From Escherichia coli (lineage in GTDB: Bacteria > Pseudomonadota > Gammaproteobacteria > Enterobacterales > Enterobacteriaceae), in NCBI RefSeq assembly GCF_001677475.2, contig NZ_CP015229.1: 64,000 nucleotides of DNA; one strand, given 5' to 3'. A program made the position numbers and the translations under genes. Shown here piece after piece: positions 27,888-51,345 of this stretch. Position 1 is the stretch's first letter. Every line of letters begins with the position of its first letter. The notes beneath the pieces are model-generated. The model saw only the letters and a program-made list of their open reading frames with translations, had not been told where the DNA came from and searched no databases.

Positions 27888-28077
27888 ACTGCAGGCGCTG
27901 CGTCAGGCGCGCCTTGATTTATTAACCGGTAAACGGGTGGTGTCTGTCCAGAAAGATGGTCGCAGAATTGAATATACGGCGGCTTCTCTGGATGAGCTTA
28001 ACCGGGCGATCAATGATGCGGAGTCGGTACTGGGGACAACCCGACGTCGCCGTCGTCCGCTGGGAGTGAGGTTATGA
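27871..28077 (+). CDS. W: Head-tail joining protein W
   Basis: 68-aa lambda W-like (TGKRVVSVQKDGRRIEYTA). Confidence 0.85.
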   Translation: MVTVAELQALRQARLDLLTGKRVVSVQKDGRRIEYTAASLDELNRAINDAESVLGTTRRRRRPLGVRL

Positions 28078-29666
28078 AACGAACGCCTGTCCTGATTGAT
28101 GTGAACGGTGTTCCGCTTCGTGAGAGTCTCAGCTACAACGGGGGCGGCGCAGGATTTGGCGGGCAAATGGCGGAGTGGTTGCCACCGGCGCAGAGTGCCG
28201 ATGCGGCCCTGCTGCCCGCGTTGCGTCTGGGGAATGCCCGGGCAGATGATCTGGTGCGCAATAACGGAATAGCGGCTAATGCGGTTGCCCTGCATAAGGA
28301 TCACATTGTCGGGCATATGTTTCTGATCAGCTACCGTCCGAACTGGCGCTGGCTGGGGATGCGGGAGACCGCAGCAAAAAGCTTTGTCGATGAGGTGGAG
28401 GCGTCCTGGTCGGAATACGCCGAAGGGATGTTTGGCGAGATCGACGTGGAAGGAAAACGCACGTTCACGGAATTTATCCGTGAAGGTGTGGGCGTTCATG
28501 CGTTTAACGGCGAAATCTTTGTGCAGCCGGTCTGGGATACGGAAACCACGCAGTTATTCCGTACGCGTTTTAAAGCTGTGAGTCCGAAACGGGTGGACAC
28601 GCCTGGACACGGTATGGGGAACCGTTTTCTGCGGGCCGGTGTGGAGGTCGATCGATATGGCCGTGCCGTCGCGTACCATATCTGTGAGGATGATTTTCCG
28701 TTCTCTGGTAGTGGACGATGGGAACGGATCCCGCGTGAACTTCCCACCGGGCGTCCGGCCATGCTGCATATTTTCGAGCCGGTGGAGGACGGGCAGACCC
28801 GTGGGGCTAATCAGTTTTACAGCGTCATGGAACGGCTGAAGATGCTCGATTCCCTGCAGGCAACACAGCTTCAGTCGGCCATAGTGAAGGCGATGTATGC
28901 AGCGACGATTGAAAGTGAACTTGATACCGAAAAGGCCTTTGAATATATCGCCGGCGCGCCACAGGAGCAGAAGGATAATCCGCTTATTAATATTCTGGAG
29001 AAGTTCTCCAGCTGGTATGACACGAATAACGTGACACTGGGCGGAGTCAAAATTCCGCACCTTTTCCCTGGTGATGATCTGAAACTACAGACTGCGCAGG
29101 ATTCAGACAATGGATTTTCTGCACTTGAACAGGCGCTGCTGCGGTATATCGCCGCCGGTCTTGGCGTTTCCTACGAACAGTTGTCCCGTGATTACTCGAA
29201 GGTCAGTTACTCAAGTGCCCGCGCCTCCGCCAATGAGTCGTGGCGCTATTTTATGGGGCGGCGAAAATTTATTGCGGCCCGGCTGGCCACGCAGATGTTT
29301 TCCTGCTGGCTGGAAGAGGCACTTCTTCGGGGGATTATTCGTCCGCCACGGGCACGTTTTGATTTTTATCAGGCGCGATCAGCCTGGTCACGGGCAGAGT
29401 GGATTGGTGCCGGAAGAATGGCCATTGACGGGCTCAAGGAAGTCCAGGAATCAGTGATGCGCATTGAGGCCGGACTGAGCACGTATGAGAAAGAGCTGGC
29501 GCTAATGGGCGAGGATTATCAGGACATTTTCCGCCAGCAGGTCAGGGAATCTGCAGAGCGGCAAAAAGCCGGACTCTCACGTCCGGTGTGGATATCGCAG
29601 GCGTATCAGCAGCAGATAGCGGAGAGTCGCAGGCCGGAAGAGGAGACAACACCACGTGAGACGTAA
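28074..29666 (+). CDS. B: Portal protein B
   Basis: 530-aa lambda gpB-like; packaging gene order. Confidence 0.9.
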   Translation: MKRTPVLIDVNGVPLRESLSYNGGGAGFGGQMAEWLPPAQSADAALLPALRLGNARADDLVRNNGIAANAVALHKDHIVGHMFLISYRPNWRWLGMRETAAKSFVDEVEASWSEYAEGMFGEIDVEGKRTFTEFIREGVGVHAFNGEIFVQPVWDTETTQLFRTRFKAVSPKRVDTPGHGMGNRFLRAGVEVDRYGRAVAYHICEDDFPFSGSGRWERIPRELPTGRPAMLHIFEPVEDGQTRGANQFYSVMERLKMLDSLQATQLQSAIVKAMYAATIESELDTEKAFEYIAGAPQEQKDNPLINILEKFSSWYDTNNVTLGGVKIPHLFPGDDLKLQTAQDSDNGFSALEQALLRYIAAGLGVSYEQLSRDYSKVSYSSARASANESWRYFMGRRKFIAARLATQMFSCWLEEALLRGIIRPPRARFDFYQARSAWSRAEWIGAGRMAIDGLKEVQESVMRIEAGLSTYEKELALMGEDYQDIFRQQVRESAERQKAGLSRPVWISQAYQQQIAESRRPEEETTPRET

Positions 29667-31161
29667 TCTTTCACACATTATTGCCGCAGCATTCAATGAA
29701 CCGCTGCTTCTGGAGCCCGCCTATGCGCGGGTTTTCTTTTGCGCGCTCGGGCGCGAGATGGGGGCAGCAAGTCTTTCGGTACCACAACAACAGGTACAGC
29801 TTGATGCTCCCGGAATGCTGGCTGAAACGGACGAGTATATGGCCGGAGGTAAACGACCGGCCCGTGTTTACCGGGTGGTGAACGGTATTGCTGTACTGCC
29901 GGTGACCGGCACGCTGGTGCACCGGCTGGGTGGTATGCGGCCATTTTCCGGAATGACAGGCTATGACGGCATTGTCGCCTGTCTTCAGCAGGCAATGGCG
30001 GATAGCCAGGTGCGGGGCGTACTGCTGGACATTGACAGTCCGGGCGGGCAGGCCGCCGGCGCGTTTGACTGCGCTGACATGATTTACCGCCTCCGTCAGC
30101 AGAAGCCGGTCTGGGCACTGTGCAATGACACGGCCTGTTCTGCAGCCATGCTGCTGGCGTCGGCCTGCTCCCGACGGCTGGTTACCCAGACATCCCGTAT
30201 CGGCTCCATTGGCGTGATGATGAGCCATGTCAGCTATGCCGGTCATCTGGCGCAGGCCGGTGTGGATATCACGCTGATTTACTCAGGGGCGCACAAGGTG
30301 GATGGCAATCAGTTTGAAGCGTTGCCGGCAGAGGTTCGCCAGGACATGCAGCAGCGGATTGATGCGGCGCGCCGGATGTTTGCCGAAAAAGTGGCGATGT
30401 ATACCGGTCTGTCTGTTGATGCCATCACGGGAACAGAGGCTGCCGTTTTTGAAGGTCAGTCCGGCATTGAGGCCGGGCTGGCGGATGAATTAATCAATGC
30501 GTCGGATGCCATCAGTGTGATGGCCACGGCGCTGAACAGTAATGTCAGAGGAGGCACTATGCCGCAATTAACTGCAACGGAAGCCGCCGCGCAGGAGAAC
30601 CAGCGAGTGATGGGGAGCCTGACATGCCAGGAAGCGAAAGGACGTGAACAGCTTGCCACGATGCTGGCAGGACAACAGGGCATGAGCGTTGAACAGGCCC
30701 GGGCGATTCTGGCCGCGGCGGCACCGCAGCAGCCGGTGGCATCCACGCAGAGTGAAGCCGATCGCATTATGGCGTGTGAAGAAGCGAACGGTCGTGAACA
30801 ACTGGCGGCAACGCTGGCGGCGATGCCGGAGATGACGGTGGAAAAAGCCCGCCCGATCCTGGCTGCTTCACCGCAGGCGGATGCCGGACCATCACTCCGT
30901 GATCAGATCATGGCACTGGATGAGGCAAAAGGGGCTGAGGCGCAGGCTGAACAGCTGGCTGCCTGCCCGGGAATGACAGTGGAGAGCGCCCGGGCTGTGC
31001 TGGCTGCGGGATCAGGTAAGGCAGAACCGGTCTCTGCATCCACAACCGCCATGTTTGAACATTTCATGGCGAACCATTCACCGGCAGCGGTACAGGGTGG
31101 CGTGGCACAGACGTCAGCAGACGGTGATGCGGACGTGAAAATGCTCATGGCCATGCCATGA
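29656..31161 (+). CDS. C: Head maturation protease C (S49 family) with nested scaffold Nu3-like C-terminal region
   Basis: 501-aa ORF; C-terminal three tandem ~35-aa repeats. Confidence 0.85.
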   Translation: MRRNLSHIIAAAFNEPLLLEPAYARVFFCALGREMGAASLSVPQQQVQLDAPGMLAETDEYMAGGKRPARVYRVVNGIAVLPVTGTLVHRLGGMRPFSGMTGYDGIVACLQQAMADSQVRGVLLDIDSPGGQAAGAFDCADMIYRLRQQKPVWALCNDTACSAAMLLASACSRRLVTQTSRIGSIGVMMSHVSYAGHLAQAGVDITLIYSGAHKVDGNQFEALPAEVRQDMQQRIDAARRMFAEKVAMYTGLSVDAITGTEAAVFEGQSGIEAGLADELINASDAISVMATALNSNVRGGTMPQLTATEAAAQENQRVMGSLTCQEAKGREQLATMLAGQQGMSVEQARAILAAAAPQQPVASTQSEADRIMACEEANGREQLAATLAAMPEMTVEKARPILAASPQADAGPSLRDQIMALDEAKGAEAQAEQLAACPGMTVESARAVLAAGSGKAEPVSASTTAMFEHFMANHSPAAVQGGVAQTSADGDADVKMLMAMP

Positions 31162-31197: not shown

Positions 31198-31545
31198 ATG
31201 GTGACGAAAACCATCACTGAACAGCGTGCGGAAGTACGTATTTTTGCCGGTAATGATCCGGCTCATACCGCCACAGGCAGCAGCGGGATTTCTCAGGCAA
31301 CACCGGCACTGACGCCCCTGATGCTGGATGAGTCTACCGGGAAACTGGTGGTCTGGGACGGACAGAAAGCCGGTAGTGCGGCTGGCATACTGGTACTGCC
31401 GCTTGAAGGCACAGAGACGGTGCTGACGTATTACAAGTCGGGAACCTTTGCGACGGAGGCAATCCACTGGCCTGAAAGTGTGGATGAACACAAAAAGGCC
31501 AACGCCTTTGCCGGCAGTGCCCTGAGTCACGCGGCGCTGCCGTAA
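31198..31545 (+). CDS. D: Head decoration protein D
   Basis: Lambda gpD-like (NDPAHTATG...PLMLD...KSGTFA). Confidence 0.88.
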   Translation: MVTKTITEQRAEVRIFAGNDPAHTATGSSGISQATPALTPLMLDESTGKLVVWDGQKAGSAAGILVLPLEGTETVLTYYKSGTFATEAIHWPESVDEHKKANAFAGSALSHAALP

Positions 31546-31602: not shown

Positions 31603-32631
31603 ATGGGATTGTTTACGACCCGCCAGTTGCTCGGTTATACCGAACAAAAAGTGAAATATCGTGCGCTGTTTCTGGAGCTGTTTTTCCGCCGTACGGTGAA
31701 TTTCCATACCGAAGAGGTGATGCTGGACAAAATTACCGGAAAAACGCCGGTGGCGGCCTATGTCTCCCCGGTTGTTGAAGGAAAAGTGCTGCGTCATCGT
31801 GGTGGTGAAACCCGCGTGTTGCGTCCGGGCTACGTCAAGCCGAAACACGAATTTAATTACCAGCAGGCGGTTGAGCGCCTTCCTGGTGAAGATCCATCTC
31901 AACTGAACGATCCGGCTTACCGCCGTCTGCGTATCATTACCGATAACCTCAAACAGGAAGAGCACGCGATTGTCCAGGTGGAAGAAATGCAGGCGGTAAA
32001 TGCTGTGTTGTATGGCAAATACACCATGGAAGGAGACCAGTTCGAGAAAATTGAGGTCGATTTTGGCAGGTCGACGAAGAATAACATCACACAGGGTAGC
32101 GGTAAGGAATGGTCAAAACAGGATCGTGACACGTTCGATCCTACACATGATATTGATCTTTACTGCGACCAGGCCAGCGGTCTTGTGAATATTGCCATCA
32201 TGGACGGTACCGTTTGGCGTCTGCTGAATGGTTTTAAGCTGTTTCGCGAAAAACTGGATACCCGTCGCGGTTCAAATTCACAACTCGAAACGGCAGTGAA
32301 AGATCTGGGCGCAGTGGTGTCCTTCAAGGGGTATTACGGCGATCTGGCTATTGTTGTGGCGAAAACGTCTTATATAGCAGAAGACGGTATCGAAAAACGT
32401 TATCTTCCAGATGGCATGCTGGTCCTGGGGAATACTGCTGCAGATGGGATCCGTTGTTACGGAGCCATTCAGGATGCGCAGGCGTTGTCCGAAGGTGTGG
32501 TGGCTTCTTCCCGTTATCCGAAACACTGGCTGACGGTGGGGGATCCTGCCCGTGAATTTACCATGACGCAGTCCGCACCGCTGATGGTGTTGCCGGACCC
32601 GGATGAGTTTGTGGTGGTACAGGTGAAATAA
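31603..32631 (+). CDS. E: Major capsid protein E
   Basis: 342-aa lambda gpE-like (PGYVKPKHE, DPAREFTM, LPDPDEFV). Confidence 0.92.
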   Translation: MGLFTTRQLLGYTEQKVKYRALFLELFFRRTVNFHTEEVMLDKITGKTPVAAYVSPVVEGKVLRHRGGETRVLRPGYVKPKHEFNYQQAVERLPGEDPSQLNDPAYRRLRIITDNLKQEEHAIVQVEEMQAVNAVLYGKYTMEGDQFEKIEVDFGRSTKNNITQGSGKEWSKQDRDTFDPTHDIDLYCDQASGLVNIAIMDGTVWRLLNGFKLFREKLDTRRGSNSQLETAVKDLGAVVSFKGYYGDLAIVVAKTSYIAEDGIEKRYLPDGMLVLGNTAADGIRCYGAIQDAQALSEGVVASSRYPKHWLTVGDPAREFTMTQSAPLMVLPDPDEFVVVQVK

Positions 32632-40943: not shown

Positions 40944-42370
40944 ATGGGTAAAGGAAGCAGTAAGGGGCATACCCCGCGCGAAGCGAAGGACAACCTGAAG
41001 TCCACGCAGTTGCTGAGTGTGATCGATGCCATCAGCGAAGGGCCGGTTGAAGGTCCGGTGGATGGATTAAAAAGCGTGCTGCTGAACAGTACGCCGGTGC
41101 TGGACACTGAGGGGAATACCAACATCTCCGGTATCACGGTGGTGTTCCGTGCCGGTGAGCAGGAGCAGACACCGCCGGAGGGGTTTGAATCCTCCGGCTC
41201 CGAGACGGTGCTGGGTACGGAAGTGAAATATGACACGCCGATCACCCGCACCATTACGTCTGCAAACATCGACCGTCTGCGCTTTACCTTCGGTGTACAG
41301 GCACTGGTGGAAACCACCTCAAAGGGTGACAGGAATCCGTCGGAAGTCCGTCTGCTGGTTCAGATACAACGTAACGGTGGCTGGGTGACGGAAAAAGACA
41401 TCACCATTAAGGGCAAAACCACCTCGCAGTATCTGGCCTCGGTGGTGGTGGATAACCTGCCGCCGCGCCCGTTTAATATCCGGATGCGCAGGATGACGCC
41501 GGACAGCACCACAGACCAGCTGCAGAACAAAACGCTCTGGTCGTCATACACCGAAATTATCGATGTGAAACAGGGCTACCCGAACACGGCACTGGTCGGC
41601 GTGCAGGTGGACTCGGAGCAGTTCGGCAGCCAGCAGGTGAGCCGTAATTATCATCTGCGCGGGCGTATTCTGCAGGTGCCGTCGAATTATAACCCGCAGA
41701 CGCGGCAATACAGCGGTATCTGGGACGGAACGTTTAAACCGGCATACAGCAACAACATGGCCTGGTGTCTGTGGGATATGCTGACCCATCCGCGCTACGG
41801 CATGGGGAAACGTCTTGGTGCGGCGGATGTGGACAAATGGGCGCTGTATGTCATCGGCCAGTACTGCGACCAGTCAGTACCGGACGGCTTTGGCGGCACG
41901 GAGCCGCGCATCACCTGTAATGCATACCTGACCACACAGCGCAAGGCGTGGGATGTGCTCAGTGATTTCTGCTCGGCGATGCGCTGTATGCCGGTATGGA
42001 ACGGGCAGACGCTGACGTTCGTGCAGGACCGACCATCAGATAAGGTGTGGACCTATAACCGCAGTAATGTGGTGATGCCGGATGATGGCGCGCCGTTCCG
42101 CTACAGCTTCAGCGCCCTGAAGGACCGCCATAATGCCGTTGAGGTGAACTGGATTGACCCGAACAACGGCTGGGAGACGGCGACAGAGCTTGTTGAAGAT
42201 ACGCAGGCCATTGCCCGTTACGGTCGTAATGTCACGAAGATGGATGCCTTTGGCTGTACCAGCCGGGGGCAGGCACACCGCGCCGGGCTGTGGCTGATTA
42301 AAACGGAACTGCTGGAGACGCAGACCGTGGATTTCAGCGTGGGTGCTGAAGGGCTTCGCCATGTACCGGG
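40944..42370 (+). pseudogene. J: Tail tip/host-specificity protein J, 5' fragment (~476 codons) truncated by IS insertion
   Basis: Lambda J-like N-terminus ending ...GLRHVPG at the IS junction; track ORF runs a few codons into the IS to a stop. Confidence 0.9.
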
Positions 42371-42463
42371 TATGAGACGACAATAACTCAGTCCGCCTGG
42401 CGCCGATTATTCTGGCCGGTTTTGTAACCTGAGTGTCATTTACATGATCCAACAGGAAATGGC

Positions 42464-43963
42464 GTGACGCTCAATACTTCTCAGGTCAGTTACTATATGA
42501 CTCAGCGTAAGAAAGGTATAACTCAGCATATCTCGGCCATGAAGGCTGGTATCTCAGTCCGTTCTGGTCGTCGGATCGAAAAAGGAGAGTGGGCAAAAAA
42601 CAGTGTTCGGCACTGGCGCACACGCAAAGATCCTCTGGAAGCTGTGTGGGACAGCATGCTTGTTCCTCTGTTGAAAGAGAGGCCGGCTCTGACACCAACA
42701 ACTCTACTGGAGATGCTACAGGATAAATATCCCGGCCAGTACCCCAACAGCCTTCGAAGAACAATGCAACGGCGGGTTCGCGAATGGAAACTACAGTATG
42801 GTACAGAGCAGGAGGTCATGTTCCGCCAGCAACATCAGCCCGGCCTGCGAGGCCTGTCGGACTTTACTGAACTGAAAGGTGTAGTTGTCACCATCGCCGG
42901 TAAGTTGTTGGCGCATAAGTTGTATCACTTCCGTCTGGAATGGAGCCACTGGAGCTGGATGCGGGTTGTTCTGGGTGGTGAGAGCTTCTCTGCTCTGGCT
43001 GAAGGCCTGCAGGAAGCCCTCGGACAACTGGGCGGAGTGCCGGTAGAACATAAAACGGACAGCCTGAGGGCAGCATGGAAACAACAGGGCGAAGATGGAC
43101 GCCGCGAGCTGACTGAGCGTTATGCTACTCTCTGTCAGCACTACGGAATGCAGGGCGTACACAATAATGCCGGTCGGGGCCACGAAAATGGCTCGGTTGA
43201 AAGTGCCCACGGACATCTGAAAAGGCGTATCTGTCAGGCGCTGATACTGCGGGGCAGTAACGACTTCAGCACCATAGAAGAATATCAGGCCTTCATCACT
43301 CAGCAGGTTATGCGGCACAACCGTAACAATCAGGATCTGGTCAAGGAAGAACGTCTTCATCTGAAACCGCTGCCGCTTCGTCGCAGTGCTGACTATGATG
43401 AGCTGACTGTGAGGGTTAGTCGCAGCAGTACCATCAATGTGAAGCACGTCGTCTACAGCGTACCTTCCCGGCTTGTAGGTCAACTGTTACGGGTCAGGTT
43501 ATGGGACGATCGTCTGAGCTGTTACGTTGGCAGCAGCGAGGTCATGAGCTGCCCTCGCGTCAGACCAGAAAAAGGGAAGACGCGGGCCCGTCGTATCGAC
43601 TTCCGACATGTGATCGACAGTCTGGCAAAAAAGCCCGGTGCGTTCTGCCATGCAACGCTGAGAAATGACATCCTGCCGGACGATGAATGGCGGAGGCTGT
43701 GGCGTCGCTTATGTAATCATCTGGAGCCCGATATGGCAGGAAGGCTGATGGTACATGCCCTGAAACTGGCTGCAGGATACGACGATATCTCAGTCGTGGC
43801 AAAAGGTATGGAGCAGATGCTGAATACCCCGGGAAACGTGGATCTGCACCGGCTGATGCGCTTCCTGGGTATAAAAGAAAAGGCGTTGCCGGTAGTCAAT
43901 GTGATACAGCATAACCTGAGCAGTTATGAGCAACTACTGCGTGGCAAGGGAGGTTCGCAGTGA
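42464..43963 (+). CDS. istA: IS21-family transposase IstA
   Basis: 499-aa ORF with N-terminal HTH and DDE-type core; followed by overlapping IstB. Confidence 0.8.
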   Translation: MTLNTSQVSYYMTQRKKGITQHISAMKAGISVRSGRRIEKGEWAKNSVRHWRTRKDPLEAVWDSMLVPLLKERPALTPTTLLEMLQDKYPGQYPNSLRRTMQRRVREWKLQYGTEQEVMFRQQHQPGLRGLSDFTELKGVVVTIAGKLLAHKLYHFRLEWSHWSWMRVVLGGESFSALAEGLQEALGQLGGVPVEHKTDSLRAAWKQQGEDGRRELTERYATLCQHYGMQGVHNNAGRGHENGSVESAHGHLKRRICQALILRGSNDFSTIEEYQAFITQQVMRHNRNNQDLVKEERLHLKPLPLRRSADYDELTVRVSRSSTINVKHVVYSVPSRLVGQLLRVRLWDDRLSCYVGSSEVMSCPRVRPEKGKTRARRIDFRHVIDSLAKKPGAFCHATLRNDILPDDEWRRLWRRLCNHLEPDMAGRLMVHALKLAAGYDDISVVAKGMEQMLNTPGNVDLHRLMRFLGIKEKALPVVNVIQHNLSSYEQLLRGKGGSQ

Positions 43964-44715
43964 GCAATATCCATCACCTTGAACATAGCCTGCGTAAACT
44001 ACGCCTGACACGAGTTGGAGCTGAATGGCACGCTCTGGAAAAACGAGCGCTGGCAGAAGGCTGGACACCATCGCGCTATCTTCTGACGCTATGCAATGAA
44101 GAACTCCTGTGGCGCGAGAGTGAAAAACTGCGTCGTTATAAAAAGGAGGCCCGGTTGCCAGTTGCCAAAACGCTGAGCGAATACGACTTCAGTCAGGTGC
44201 CGGAACTGAATGGAGCTCAGTTCCGGCAACTCTGTGAAACGACAGACTGGGTTGATGCAGGAGAAAACGTTCTGCTGTTCGGAGCCAGCGGGTTGGGGAA
44301 AAGCCATCTGGCGGCAGCGATCGTGGATGGCGTAGTAGGTCAGGGCTACCGGGCCCGGTTCTACAGCGCAGGAGAGCTGTTGCAGGAACTACGTAAAGCC
44401 AGAGCTCAGTTGAAACTGAATGAGCTGCTACTGAAACTGGATCGCTACCGGGTGATAGTGGTGGATGATCTTGGCTATGTCAAACGCGATAGTGCCGAAA
44501 CGGGTGTGCTGTTCGAGTTAATAGCGCATCGCTATGAACGTGGGAGCCTGGTGATAACCAGTAACCATCCGTTCAGCATGTGGGGCAGCATCTTCGTGGA
44601 TGAGACTATGGCGGTGGCTGCGGCAGACAGGCTGATCCATCACGGATATATGTTCGAACTGAAAGGGGAAAGCTACAGGAAAAAGACAGCGAAGGCAGTA
44701 ACAAGCGCGACTTGA
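43960..44715 (+). CDS. istB: IS21-family ATP-binding helper IstB
   Basis: Walker A (LLFGASGLGKSHLA), Walker B (VVDDLGYV) and C-terminal DRLIHHG motif. Confidence 0.88.
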   Translation: MSNIHHLEHSLRKLRLTRVGAEWHALEKRALAEGWTPSRYLLTLCNEELLWRESEKLRRYKKEARLPVAKTLSEYDFSQVPELNGAQFRQLCETTDWVDAGENVLLFGASGLGKSHLAAAIVDGVVGQGYRARFYSAGELLQELRKARAQLKLNELLLKLDRYRVIVVDDLGYVKRDSAETGVLFELIAHRYERGSLVITSNHPFSMWGSIFVDETMAVAAADRLIHHGYMFELKGESYRKKTAKAVTSAT

Positions 44716-44781: not shown

Positions 44782-46773
44782 CCGGGCGATGTCATTGAAA
44801 TCTGCGATGATGACTATGCCGGTATCAGCACCGGTGGTCGCGTGCTGGCGGTGAACAGCCAGACCCGGACGCTGACGCTCGACCGTGAAATCACGCTGCC
44901 ATCCTCCGGTACCACGCTGATAAGCCTGGTTGACGGAAGTGGTAATCCGGTCAGCGTGGAGGTTCAGTCCGTCACCGACGGACTTAAGGTGAAAGTGAAC
45001 CGGGTTCCTGACGGCGTTGCAGAATACAGCGTGTGGGGGCTGAAGCTGCCGACGCTGCGCCAGCGCCTGTTCCGCTGCGTGAGTATCCGTGAGAACGACG
45101 ACGGCACGTATGCCATCACTGCCGTGCAGCATGTACCGGAAAAAGAAGCCATCGTGGATAACGGGGCGCACTTTGACGGCGACCAGAGCGGCACGGTGAA
45201 TGGTGTCACGCCGCCAGCGGTGCAGCACCTGACCGCCGAAGTCACCGCAGACAGCGGGGAATATCAGGTGCTGGCGCGCTGGGACACGCCGAAGGTGGTG
45301 AAGGGCGTGAGCTTCCTGCTCCGTCTGACCGTAACAGCGGATGACGGCAGTGAGCGGCTGGTCAGCACGGCCCGGACGACGGAAACCACATACCGCTTCA
45401 CGCAACTGGCGCTGGGGAACTACAGGCTGACAGTCCGGGCGGTAAATGCGTGGGGGCAGCAGGGCGATCCGGCGTCGGTATCGTTCCGGATTGCCGCACC
45501 GGCAGCACCGTCGAGGATTGAGCTGACGCCGGGCTATTTTCAGATAACCGCCACGCCGCATCTTGCCGTTTATGACCCGACGGTACAGTTTGAGTTCTGG
45601 TTCTCGGAAAAGCGGATTACCGATATCAGGCAGGTTGAAACCACAGCCCGCTATCTTGGTACGGCGCTGTACTGGATAGCCGCCAGTATCAATATCAAAC
45701 CGGGCCATGATTATTACTTTTATATCCGCAGTGTGAACACCGTTGGCAAATCGGCATTCGTGGAGGGCGTCGGTCGGGCGAGCGATGATGCGGAAGGTTA
45801 CCTGGATTTTTTCAAAGGCAAGATAACCGAATCCCATCTCGGTAAAGAGCTGCTGGAAAAAGTTGATTTGACGGAGGATAACGCCAGCAGACTGGATGAG
45901 TTTTCGAAAGAGTGGAAGGACGCTAACGATAAATGGAATGCCATGTGGGGCGTCAAAATTGAGCAGACCAAAGACGGCAAACATTATGTCGCGGGTATTG
46001 GCCTCAGCATGGAGGACACGGAGGAAGGCAAGCTGAGCCAGTTTCTGGTTGCCGCTAACCGTATCGCGTTTATTGACCCGGCAAACGGGAATGAAACGCC
46101 GATGTTTGTGGCGCAGGGCAACCAGATATTCATGAACGACGTGTTCCTGAAGCGCCTGACAGCCCCCACCATTACCAGCGGTGGCAGTCCTCCGGTATTT
46201 TCCCTGACATCAGACGGAAAGCTGACCGCTAAAAATGCGGATATCAGTGGTAGTGTGAATGCGAACTCAGGAACGCTCAACAATGTCACGATTAACCAGA
46301 ACTGTACGATTAAGGGCATGCTGGAGGCGACTCAGGTCAGAGGTGACTTCGTTAAAGCTGTATCCAAATCATTTCCGAAACAGGCTGGTACGTGGGGTAA
46401 CACGGAAACACCAAACGGGACGGTTACAGTCACCATCAGCGATGATCATAACTTTGACCGTCAAATCATTATTCCGCCCATTATCTTTAACGGAATAGCG
46501 TATAGCGATCCGGGAAGTGGTAATAACCCGGGAGGTACAAGATACACGGGTTATGGTTTTGAAGTTCGCAAAAACGGTGTATTAATCGCATCCAGAGAAA
46601 CTAAAGGGGCCATTCCCGGTAGCTACAGTGCGGTTATTGATATGCCGAGTGGCAGGGGAAGCGTCACTCTGGAGTTTAAGGTTTTCCATAAAGGCAATCA
46701 GTGGGCAGGTAATATCACCGACTGTACGGTGATTGTGACCAAAAAAGCCGCTTCCGGCATCAGTATTCGTTGA
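44782..46773 (+). pseudogene. J: Tail tip/host-specificity protein J, 3' fragment
   Basis: Resumes in frame ([29 protein letters not shown]...) exactly as lambda J continues after ...HVPG. Confidence 0.9.
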
Positions 46774-47506: not shown

Positions 47507-50446
47507 ATGGCAGTAAAGATTTCAGGTGTACTGAAAGACGGCACAGGAAAACCGGTACAGAACTGCACAATCCAGCTGAAAGCAAAACGTAACAGCACCA
47601 CGGTGGTGGTGAACACGCTGGCCTCAGAAAATCCGGATGAAGCCGGGCGTTATAGCATGGACGTTGAGTACGGTCAGTACAGCGTTATTCTGTTGGTGGA
47701 AGGATGCCCGCCGTCACATGCCGGGACCATCACCGTGTATGAAGATTCCCGACCCGGTACGCTGAATGATTTTCTCGGTGCCATGACGGAGGATGATGCC
47801 CGTCCGGAGGCTCTGCGCCGTTTTGAACTGATGGTGGAAGAGGTGGCGCGTAACGCGTCCGCGGTGGCACAGAACACGGCAGCCGCGAAGAAGTCAGCCG
47901 GCGATGCCGGCACATCTGCCCGTGAGGCGGCAACCCATGCGACTGATGCTGCAGATTCAGCACGTGCAGCCAGCACGTCAGCCGGACAGGCCGCGACGTC
48001 AGCTCAGGAGGCTTTTTCCTGCGCAGGAACGGCATCAGCAAAAGCCTCTGAGGCATCAAAAAGTGCTGCCGCTGCAGAGTCCTCAAAAAGCGCGGCGGCC
48101 ACCAGTGCCGGTGCCGCGAAAACGTCTGAAACGAATGCTGCAGCGTCACAACAATCAGCAGCCACTTCTGCATCCACCGCGACCACGAAAGCGTCAGAAG
48201 CTGCCACCTCAGCCCGGGATGCGTCGGCTTCAAAAGAGGCGGCAAAATCATCAGAAACGAGCGCAGCCTCGAGCGCAAGTAGTTCCGCTTCCTCGGCAAC
48301 AGCGGCAGCAAATTCTGCGAAGGCGGCAAAAACGTCCGAGACGAACGCCAGGTCTTCTGAAACGGCAGCGGAACAGAGCGCCTCAGCTGCGGCAGGTTCA
48401 GAAACTACCGCTGCATCATCAGCCCGTGAGGCGTCAGTCAAAGCGGAGGAGGCTGCAGCCAGTGCCACTGCCGCCGGAAAATCGGCAGAAAGCGCCGCAT
48501 CATCCGCTTCAACAGCCACAACGAAGGCTGGCGAAGCCACTGAACAGGCCAGCGCAGCAGCGAGGTCAGCTTCCGCAGCGAAGACATCCGAAACGAACGC
48601 GAAAGCGTCGGAAACCAGCGCAGAATCCTCAAAAACGGCTGCCGCATCGTCCGCCAGTTCGGCGGCGTCATCGGCCTCATCGGCGTCTGCTTCAAAAGAT
48701 GAGGCGACCAGACAAGCGTCAGCAGCGAAGGGCAGCGCCACGACGGCATCCACGAAGGCAACAGAGGCTGCTGGCAGTGCGACGGCGGCAGCACAGAGCA
48801 AAAGTACGGCGGAATCCGCGGCAACGCGCGCCGAGACAGCGGCAAAACGGGCAGAGGATATTGCATCCGCCGTGGCGCTTGAGGATGCGAGCACGACGAA
48901 AAAGGGGATAGTACAGCTCAGCAGTGCGACCAACAGCACTTCCGAGTCACAGGCGGCAACGCCAAAGGCAGTAAAAGCAGCCAATGACAATGCTGAGAAA
49001 CGTCTGCAGAAAGATCAGAACGGTGCGGATATCCCTGGCAAAGACACCTTTACGAAAAATATTGGTGCCTGCCGTGCCTTCGGTGGGTCAGTAAGCACAA
49101 CAACAGGAAACTGGACGACTGCACAGTTTATCGAGTGGCTGGATTCTCAGGGAGCATTTAACCATCCATACTGGATGTGCAAGGGTTCCTGGTCTTATGG
49201 CAATAATAAAATCATTACTGATACTGGCTGCGGTAATATTCATCTCGCCGGAGCTGTCATTGAAGTAATGGGGATAAAGTCAGCGATGACGATCCGCATT
49301 ACCACTCCGACTACATCCAGCGGTGGCGGAACAACCAACGCCCAGTTTACCTATATTAATCACGGAACAGATTATTCACCTGGCTGGCGAAGGGACTATA
49401 ACTCCAGAAATAAGCCAACGGCATCAGAGATCGGGGCGCTACCGTCAGGTGGAACAGCAGTATCATCAGTTAATCTGGCTTCAAAAGGTCGGGTAGCCGC
49501 GCTGACAGACAATACGCAGGGGGCAGCAGGTCTTGAGTTATACGAGGTGTATAACAACGGATATCCAACAGCGTATGGAAATATCATTCACCTGAAAGGG
49601 ATGACAGCCGTTGGCGAAGGTGAGTTACTCATCGGCTGGAGTGGTACAAGCGGTGCTCATGCTCCGGCATTTATTCGTTCACGACGGGATACGACCGACG
49701 CAAACTGGTCGCCGTGGGCGCAGCTTTACACCTCGGCTCATCCTCCTGCAGAGTTTTATCCAGTCGGTGCACCAATCCCGTGGCCATCAGATACCGTTCC
49801 GTCTGGCTATGCCCTGATGCAGGGGCAGACTTTTGACAAATCTGCATACCCGAAACTTGCAGCGGCTTATCCGTCAGGCGTTATTCCTGATATGCGTGGC
49901 TGGACGATTAAGGGCAAGCCCGCCAGTGGTCGTGCCGTATTGTCTCAGGAACAGGACGGCATTAAATCGCACACCCACAGCGCCAGCGCATCCAGTACGG
50001 ATTTGGGGACGAAAACCACATCGTCGTTTGATTACGGCACTAAATCCACGAATAACACCGGTGCGCATACCCATAGTTTAAGTGGCAGCACGAATGCGGC
50101 TGGTAATCACAGCCATAGAGATGGCCGTCGATTTAACCCCAGTGTTTTTAAAGATACTTATCAATATGGTTATACAAGCTCAGGTCAAAATACCTGGGGG
50201 GTACAAGGCTCAGTAGGTATGTCTACGGGGTGGTTAGCTAATACCAGTACAGATGGTAATCATAGCCACTCACTGTCCGGTACAGCAGTATCTGCAGGTG
50301 CACACGCGCATACTGTCGGTATTGGTGCTCATACGCACTCCGTTGCGATAGGGTCACATGGACACACCATCACCGTTAACGCTGCTGGTAACGCGGAAAA
50401 CACCGTCAAAAACATCGCATTTAACTATATTGTGAGGCTTGCATGA
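47507..50446 (+). CDS. stf: Side tail fibre protein Stf (Ala/Ser-rich repeats; C-terminal HxH repeats)
   Basis: 979-aa ORF; long low-complexity central region; C-terminus [18 protein letters not shown]...[15 protein letters not shown] typical of lambda-type Stf. Confidence 0.85.
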
Positions 50447-51345
50447 TTACGCTCATTCTTTCTGCACCAGTAACAGAAATGGCTGAAGCATTTAAGCGGG
50501 TATTCGCAAATGCAGATAATGTGAATATTGTCGGAAAGCCATTTGAAACAATCAGGGAATTTGACTGCATGGTAAGTGCGGCAAACAGTTTCGGCCTGAT
50601 GGATGGCGGTGTTGATGCCGCCATTACCGCATTCTTCGGTACTCAGTTACAGTCCCGCGTTCAGAATCATATTCTTCGTGAATATCTCGGCGAGCAGCCT
50701 GTAGGTTCTGCATTTGTTATTGAAACGGGGCATAATCATCATCCCTGGCTGGTACATGCGCCAACAATGCGTGTTCCGCTGACAATTGACGGAACAGACG
50801 CTGTATATAACGCAACCTGGGCCGCTCTGCTTGCCATCTTTCAGCACAATAAACACGCAACGACAGACAGGAAAATAAAAACGGTGGTATTCCCTGCAAT
50901 GGGAGCCGGATGTGGTCAGGTGCCGTTTGAAAGTGTTGCCCGGCAGATGAAGCAGGCATGGGATAACTTTAATAAAAAAACAGAATCAATTAACTGGGAA
51001 TACGCACAATCCCGCCAGTCGGCAGTATTTGGCACATATGCATACTGTCCGGGTAATTCTGTTTGCCGTTATGCGGATACTAAATATATTGGATGCGGCG
51101 ATTATCGGACGTATTGCTCACGTTCCGGGCAGGTCTGTATTAACCCTGAACATCAGGCTGATGATGTACTGATACAACATCAGGCTAATAACCGGTTTCG
51201 CCCTGGTTCGCATATACACCGGATTAATCCAGAAAATCCCGTAGGTAATGTCATCTCTGGCGCACATAGCCACGGAAGTAGCATCGTTATTGGTGCTCAC
51301 ACCCATACGCTCAATAAACAATATTCTGTCTCTGATATTAAGTAG
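50443..51345 (+). CDS. Macro-domain (ADP-ribose binding/hydrolase-like) protein with tail-fibre-like His-repeat C-terminus, inserted between stf and tfa
   Basis: ATGA overlap with stf stop; macro motifs [18 protein letters not shown] and [14 protein letters not shown]; C-terminal [18 protein letters not shown] echoes the Stf C-terminus; stop 8 nt before tfa ATG. Confidence 0.6.

Follow-up and report, generated by a model that had tools for sequence, protein, structure and literature searches.

The open reading frame (ORF) at positions 29656-31161 of a 64,000-nucleotide stretch of Escherichia coli DNA (assembly GCF_001677475.2, contig NZ_CP015229.1; the whole stretch is referred to below as the window) codes for a 501-residue protein in which a prohead protease of the S49 family is followed by a scaffold region with three tandem copies of a unit of about 40 residues. 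Judged by its sequence, it is almost beyond doubt the head gene 5 of phage-21 type with gene 6 nested in it, carried by a phage-21-like prophage. The triple repeat itself is a known and very common variant and no fresh observation; it has little weight as a discovery, as the triplication has stood in the phage 21 record for decades and the gene is present in about a third of the complete E. coli genomes. What the comparisons add is the context of an uncatalogued module. They indicate that the unit is an old and widely conserved element of lambda-type head cassettes, located near the C-terminus of the S49 proteases, and that the lineage of phage 21 and the Salmonella prophage Gifsy-1 tripled it long ago, most relatives, lambda included, having one copy and natural variants having from one to four. 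The explanation that we favour overall, a phage-21-type gene 5/6 with old, selected units that would tether the scaffold to the capsid, has in our estimation an even chance of being right as a whole.

Three repeat units in the scaffold region

The protein was compared with itself in windows scored with BLOSUM62, and a profile of the unit was then used on the same sequence. The gene and its parts are the following:

29656-31161, plus strand: gene 5 analogue (analogue of lambda C), S49 prohead protease fused to the scaffold region, 501 residues (ORF list, phrog_53)
30091-30534, plus strand: Peptidase_S49 (SppA-like) catalytic domain, residues 146-293 (Pfam PF01343)
30604-30729, plus strand: unit R1, residues 317-358, RVMGSLTCQEAKGREQLATMLAGQQGMSVEQARAILAAAAP (self-comparison, unit profile)
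30760-30873, plus strand: unit R2, residues 369-406, RIMACEEANGREQLAATLAAMPEMTVEKARPILAASP (self-comparison, unit profile)
30901-31014, plus strand: unit R3, residues 416-453, QIMALDEAKGAEAQAEQLAACPGMTVESARAVLAAGS (self-comparison, unit profile)
31015-31158, plus strand: C-terminal tail, residues 454-501, with the motif AMFEHFM..SPAAVQGG...DADVKMLMAMP (alignments of 21-, Gifsy- and lambda-type C-termini)

The core of the unit measures 37-41 residues and recurs with a period of 47-50, the spacers between units being 8-10 residues of Pro, Gln, Ser and Ala. R2 and R3 align without gaps, and R1 has three additional residues after the first I/V-M; pairs of units are about 51-62% identical in amino acids. 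The best off-diagonal segment of the self-comparison scored 97, far above the 34.9 ± 5.8 (maximum 63, z about 10.7) obtained in 1000 composition-preserving shuffles of the C-terminal 200 residues, so that the repeat is real and not a by-product of an Ala-rich composition. The profile hidden Markov model (HMM) of the unit found exactly three domains in the protein, at residues 314-358, 367-407 and 415-453, with 64-80 bits each. Thus, the claim of a reading made from the sequence alone, that three repeats of one common form are present, was borne out by self-alignment, shuffles and profile HMM. Its location of them held in part: the repeats do lie in the C-terminal scaffold part, but the coordinates given, 29656-31161, are those of the whole ORF and the repeats occupy only 30604-31014.

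At the nucleotide level the copies are 57-68% identical to each other, and just 35-39% at third codon positions, compared with 51-65% in amino acids. Tandem Repeats Finder (minimum score 30) reported no repeat at the DNA level and a repeat search gave 12-nucleotide seeds only, results that are uninformative because the copies are too diverged. In the protein alignment of nine units, taken from five phages, twelve columns show no variation. The tail is homologous to the lambda tail ALDRLM..AP..LAAG...DAVNDLLNTPV and does not constitute a fourth repeat. ORFs antisense to the region (e.g. 30456-30767 and 30903-31154, minus strand) were rejected, as they are unsupported and the usual by-product of GC-rich coding sequence.

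The ORF begins with GTG and overlaps the end of the portal gene. Its protease part matches PF01343 with E=5.2e-35 (121 bits, cut-off 24.9), and the complete protein matches phrog_53, head maturation protease, with E=1e-227; a match of the protease domain to TIGR00706 (SppA_dom) stayed below the cut-off. These matches, together with the position in the cassette and an overall identity of 53% to lambda C, confirm the assignment of the ORF to the C/Nu3-type protease/scaffolds that the sequence-only reading had made. Proteolysis by lambda gpC, with processing of scaffold and capsid proteins in the procapsid, is known (Medina et al., 2010, as cited in PMC8508860).

The same gene in phage 21 and its frequency in E. 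coli

Gene 5 of phage 21 (M81255.1, OL657228.1) differs from the window gene at 6 of 1506 nucleotides, without indels, and its product differs at four residues (L49F, I257V, S321I and A373V). In the GenBank record M81255.1, entitled 'Bacteriophage 21 head gene operon', gene 5 is accompanied by gene 6, which is nested in frame and has a putative ribosome-binding site (RBS) of its own. Three repeat_region features lie within gene 6; they are called 'Tri1 box', 'Tri box' and 'Tri3 box' and carry the remark 'function unknown; putative'. When transferred to the window, these boxes fall at 30626-30729 (Tri1), 30766-30876 (Tri) and 30907-31020 (Tri3), and their translations are the three units. In the phage 21 genome deposited in 2022 (OL657228.1, CPT_21_05/06) the products are named 'capsid protease/scaffolding protein' and 'scaffolding protein'. 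The nested start, the RBS, the positions of the boxes and the neighbouring genes are the same in phage 21 and in the window; unlike phage 21, the window copy belongs to an integrated prophage whose gene J is broken by an element of the IS21 family of insertion sequences (IS). Colinearity with phage 21, at 97% identity, extends over the structural genes between about 26.1 and 42.4 kb of the window. Of 5426 complete E. coli genomes, 1869 contain the 603-nucleotide scaffold region, frequently at more than one place.

Two 'CII binding site' marks of OL657228.1 (pattern TTGYN6TTGY) fall inside the gene, at 30564-30577 and 30798-30811 of the window, both on the minus strand. They are most likely chance matches, since the window contains 14 occurrences of the pattern, compared with 15.7 expected.

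The unit in lambda, Gifsy-1 and other phages

Lambda has the same architecture and the same cassette as the window gene, and the C-terminal tails are homologous. Its C protein (NC_001416, lambdap05/06) has 439 residues compared with 501, the identity rising to 60% in the protease part, and it contains a single unit, SRIMGILNCEEAHGREEQARVLAETPGMTVKTARRILAAAP, which is 60% identical to R1. The linker before this unit is about 55 residues long and rich in Thr, Ser, Ala and Asp, compared with about 15 residues in the window protein. The comparison with lambda C/Nu3 that had been proposed as a check on the repeats was therefore carried out, and lambda, having one copy, does not share the triple arrangement; the claim stands. 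As the three-residue insertion (GIL/GSL) is common to R1 and the lambda unit, R1 is the positional counterpart of the latter, and R2 and R3 are additions. A 'DRLM' that follows the lambda unit was considered as the vestige of a second repeat and rejected, as by alignment it is part of the conserved tail (ALDRLM / AMFEHFM / AFDAFM). One unit each was also found in 2B8, phi80, N15 and the Aeromonas phage phiARM81ld.

Three units in the same order were found in STM2605 of Gifsy-1, a protein of 498 residues annotated as 'prohead protease; lambda gpC homolog'. Its sequence has diverged, the identity to the window protein being 70% over the protease and 53.5% over the scaffold region, and its host belongs to another genus. 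R1 and R2 of the window are 73% and 81% identical to R1 and R2 of Gifsy-1, respectively, whereas R1 and R2 of the window are 62% identical to each other. Therefore, as R1 and R2 are nearer to their Gifsy-1 counterparts than to one another, the triplication predates the split between phage 21 and Gifsy-1. In addition, the motif has been kept while synonymous sites are near saturation, which implies purifying selection on all three copies. Both lines of comparison indicate that the units are old and that each copy is under selection.

Spread of the unit and variants in copy number

A profile of 44 positions built from the nine units was scored against 1.84 billion representative proteins, of which 1008 matched at E<=1e-3 and 116 at E<=1e-10. 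A word-indexed search with the 200-residue scaffold returned mainly fragments of close relatives from E. coli and Salmonella, which helped to reveal variants in copy number, and the breadth was taken from the exhaustive profile search. Among the best 150 matches, 53 proteins had at least 380 residues, and 51 of these carried one unit; the other two were a derivative of the 21 type with a deletion and a protein with three units (P0089), which belongs to a third lineage and lies in the context Nu1-A-W-portal-S49-HDPD. In the best 150 matches of this length the unit begins at a median position of 342 (range 268-450) and ends at a median of 51 residues from the C-terminus. The linker ahead of it is highly variable in length and composition among relatives, and often acidic or of low complexity. 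The tail is conserved among the enterobacterial relatives only and becomes unrecognisable in the distant ones, where the unit persists.

The genetic context was examined for six relatives, in five of which the downstream genes could be read. Four of them are distant (P0183, P0125, P0159 and P0192) and the others are a four-copy (L009) and a three-copy (L011) locus. As far as the contigs reach, all share a common cassette of large terminase, gpW, Phage_portal_2, S49, HDPD and Phage_cap_E, and the order of portal, S49 ORF, decoration and capsid genes in the window matches that of the distant relatives.

An alignment of enterobacterial relatives also showed forms with other copy numbers. Four units are present in P0032, an E. 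coli protein that represents a cluster of 48 sequences, the copies being 77-90% identical in protein and 42-61% at third codon positions. Two-unit variants are P0018, without R2, and P0022, with an in-register fusion of R1 and R2. Partial in-frame deletions of R2 were detected in P0009, P0011 and P0016, and a metagenomic protein of 198 residues (P0129) has two units at its N-terminus.

Some observations were made alongside. The locus of P0032 lies at 1-1043 of an E. coli draft contig (L009), and the sequence downstream, to 6042, carries lambda-like D, E, FI and FII followed by GPW_gp25 and Baseplate_J_N; by its gene content, this locus is a lambda-type head module joined to a module of contractile-tail type. 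P0112 has lost a stretch that begins where the protease domain ends and reaches into R2. P0195 (258 residues) resembles the scaffold region of Gifsy type, with residues replaced in a systematic way (A>V, P>L, T>I/M, S>F, H>Y and R>C/W); as these replacements correspond to C-to-T in the DNA, it is an artefact, probably of reads from bisulfite-treated or damaged DNA.

The nested scaffold start and the length of the scaffold

Two further features define the nested gene:

30547-30554, plus strand: Shine-Dalgarno-like sequence AGAGGAGG, 4 nucleotides 5' of an internal ATG (sequence; putative RBS in M81255.1 and OL657228.1)
30559-31161, plus strand: nested in-frame gene 6 analogue (analogue of lambda Nu3, putative scaffold), 200 residues (maps to phage 21 gp6)

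The arrangement AGAGGAGG-N4-ATG at 30547-30561 is the sole strong combination of a Shine-Dalgarno (SD) sequence and a start codon within residues 200-330. The internal GGAGG and ATG after the protease domain would give a scaffold of 200 residues that consists of the three units and the tail. Its predicted product is matched in three stretches each by phrog_8399 (head scaffolding protein) and phrog_8940 (capsid assembly protein). A GGAGG or AGGAG with an ATG just after the S49 domain is kept in Gifsy-1, phi80, N15, the four-unit locus L009 and lambda, and in the protein it appears as the motif GG(T/R)M.

In lambda the counterpart of this start is caGGAGGgcgaATG, at residue 309 of C. The nu3 gene annotated for lambda in RefSeq starts instead at residue 239 of C, inside the protease domain and without a comparable SD, and yields 201 residues. 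The sequence-only reading had suggested that the repeats may affect the length or the stoichiometry of the scaffold, and as regards length this is ambiguous. Any difference in scaffold length from lambda depends on the lambda start used: against the RefSeq Nu3 (200 vs. 201 residues) there is none, whereas against the products of the conserved SD and ATG (131 residues in lambda, 137 in N15 gp6) the scaffold of phage-21 type is about 65 residues longer. It may be that the shorter scaffold, of 131 residues, is a product of lambda, or even its main one. The 131-residue lambda product is called 'hypothetical protein' on 165 contigs.

Predicted structure of the scaffold region

The 200-residue scaffold alone was modelled with AlphaFold2. 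From the single sequence, each unit was predicted as two helices, a long one and then one of 9-11 residues, joined by a turn at the conserved P-G/E-M-T/S, with a predicted local distance difference test score (pLDDT) of 70-86 in the units and a mean of 65, and a predicted template modelling score (pTM) of 0.29. With an alignment of 13 sequences of three-unit homologues, three short helices per unit were predicted (mean pLDDT 60, pTM 0.24). Across both models the pLDDT of the units ranges from 55 to 86, and neither packs the units against one another; the low pTM (0.24-0.29) implies that no fixed arrangement exists between them. In these models, the scaffold fits a protein of the beads-on-a-string type that folds on binding. 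In agreement with this, lambda gpNu3 is called intrinsically disordered in a title by Medina et al. (2011) that PMC11922011 and PMC11565965 list.

No model in Pfam or NCBIfam covers the unit, and matches to Pfam HHH, DUF7178 and DUF7518 were rejected as far below threshold. A search of the PDB sequences with the unit profile produced chance matches only (haemoglobin, E=0.5; DacD, E=1.5).

Possible function of the units

Each unit could be a small helix-turn-helix (HTH)-like element on a flexible chain that folds or docks upon binding. The scaffold, and also the protease that ends in the same sequence, would be tethered by it to the inside of the Phage_cap_E shell during assembly. Three units per chain would then make the scaffold/protease multivalent and able to bridge up to three capsid subunits, and scaffolds with a single unit, such as lambda Nu3, would gain equal valency through oligomerising. 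By analogy, we give this proposal, tethering to the shell with multivalent chains, slightly less than an even chance. It is the most likely one because of the analogies with other scaffolds, the lambda two-hybrid data and the conservation of the unit, alone among the elements of the scaffold region, throughout the family. Helical or HTH motifs direct assembly or bind the capsid in the scaffolds of SPP1, phi29 and 80alpha (PMC11565965, PMC11922011), and Nu3 and E of lambda interact in two-hybrid tests (PMC3224144).

Several points weigh against a capsid tether. The link between the unit and the capsid protein is drawn by analogy, the GenBank note on the boxes itself reads 'function unknown', and co-occurrence with Phage_cap_E does not single out the partner, being equally a co-occurrence with Phage_portal_2 and the protease. 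The unit is not at the extreme C-terminus, and the conserved tail that follows it could be the true capsid-targeting element. The lambda two-hybrid data include Nu3-Nu3 and C-Nu3 contacts as well (PMC3224144). Confidence in the AlphaFold models is low (mean pLDDT 60-65), a Foldseek comparison of the AlphaFold model with the PDB gave no significant match (best E=8.2), and hhalign against the P22 scaffold reached a probability of 1.4% for a short match outside the HTH, which indicates no relationship. Moreover, the forms with two or four units were not seen among the isolated phages of the phage collection, and the prophage that hosts the window gene carries an IS-disrupted J.

Those two-hybrid contacts fit a different role, to which we give a minor though appreciable share of the probability, in which the units are self-association modules (scaffold-scaffold and scaffold-protease) that build the core, the tail binds the capsid and three units alter the geometry of the oligomer. 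It is precisely this C-terminal region that C and Nu3 have in common (PMC3224144), and the conserved tail stands C-terminal to the units, where other scaffolds place their capsid-binding elements. Nevertheless, the retention of the tail in enterobacterial relatives only, compared with that of the unit throughout, argues against such a division of tasks, as does the absence of packing among the three units in the AlphaFold models.

Binding of the units to the portal (gp4/B), in order to recruit the portal, or the protease and scaffold to the portal, when head assembly begins, appears improbable. Nu3 is needed for the incorporation of lambda B into the procapsid (PMC3224144), C-B and Nu3-B interactions are also listed for lambda (PMC3224144, Table 2), and every unit-bearing gene examined lies directly 3' of a Phage_portal_2 gene. 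This adjacency is, however, a trait of the entire cassette, and with only 12 portal subunits per head and an abundant scaffold, a tripled portal site would have no obvious use.

It is more improbable still that the units merely extend a flexible Ala-rich spacer, an expansion that would be tolerated and would set only the length or bulk of the scaffold. The low complexity and very variable length of the flanking linkers among relatives would suit such a spacer, and so would copy numbers from one to four and the occurrence of partial in-frame deletions. Against this, the twelve invariant columns, the motif in as many as 1008 representative proteins, the amino acid identity held despite nearly saturated synonymous positions and the positional orthology with Gifsy-1 are not what a mere spacer would be expected to show. 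Finally, helix-hairpin-helix (HhH) motifs for non-specific DNA binding can practically be discarded, as the weak match of R3 to Pfam PF00633 HHH (residues 427-450, E=0.096) has 13 bits against a cut-off of 24 and concerns one of the three units only, RuvA stands among the top Foldseek rows at noise level (E 9-10, TM 0.15-0.18), the G-h-G hairpin signature is replaced by G-M-T/S, and the exit or degradation of scaffold proteins precedes or accompanies DNA packaging.

Neighbouring genes and prophage surroundings

The neighbours of the protease/scaffold gene in the head cassette are:

28074-29666, plus strand: portal gene (analogue of lambda B), upstream neighbour (ORF list, phage 21 records)
31198-31545, plus strand: head decoration gene shp (analogue of lambda D), downstream neighbour (ORF list, phage 21 records)
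31603-32631, plus strand: major capsid protein gene 7 (analogue of lambda E) (ORF list, M81255.1, protein comparison)

The gene 7 capsid protein is 61% identical to lambda E and 84% identical to the Gifsy-1 homologue.

Colinearity with phage 21 ends at about 42370, and the tip-attachment gene J is split. Its N-terminal part is an ORF at 40944-42386 (FNIII-A_GpJ, Phage-tail_3) and its C-terminal part an ORF at 44842-46773 (Ig_J, Phage_Tail_Tip, Ig_GpJ_C), both halves being separated by the IS21-family element, with an IstA-like ORF at 42464-43963 and an IstB ORF at 43960-44715. Given the split J, the prophage probably makes no infectious tails. Directly after an ORF similar to side tail fibres (47507-50446; phage_tail_N, Collar) there is an ORF of 300 residues with a Macro domain (50443-51345; E=8e-19), possibly a moron or an accessory gene that closes the tail module. 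On the minus strand, a tRNA-Leu(CAG) occupies positions 1-87 and an rRNA methyltransferase-like ORF of host type (MTS_N and MTS) positions 388-1419, and therefore the left end of the window is chromosomal.

Comparison with known systems

The protease part has its known relatives in SppA of the S49 family (PDB 3rst, 4kwb, 3bf0), which is homologous to residues of about 77-290 of the window protein (E about 5e-16); the solved chains match only up to residue 290, and neither the repeat units nor the tail have a counterpart in SppA. For the units themselves, the natural versions with one, two, three and four copies are a series with which the tethering of scaffold and protease in lambda-like procapsids could be tested. 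A bolder and tentative proposal, which we hold to be distinctly less likely than not to be correct, is that the unit of about 40 residues is a discrete unnamed domain, the capsid-docking element of all S49 protease/scaffolds of lambda type, with its copy number acting as an evolvable dial of valency. If this were true, three units in cis would replace the oligomerisation that scaffolds with a single unit require, and their natural comparison is the scaffold of P22, reported as a 'trimer of dimers' on the procapsid lattice. P22 gp8, in which a short C-terminal helix-turn-helix on a largely disordered scaffold contacts the coat protein, is also the working analogy for the unit (PMC11565965, PMC11922011), with the difference that the HTH of gp8 is single and lies at the extreme C-terminus, whereas the window protein has its units in tandem, with a tail behind them and a protease in the same chain.

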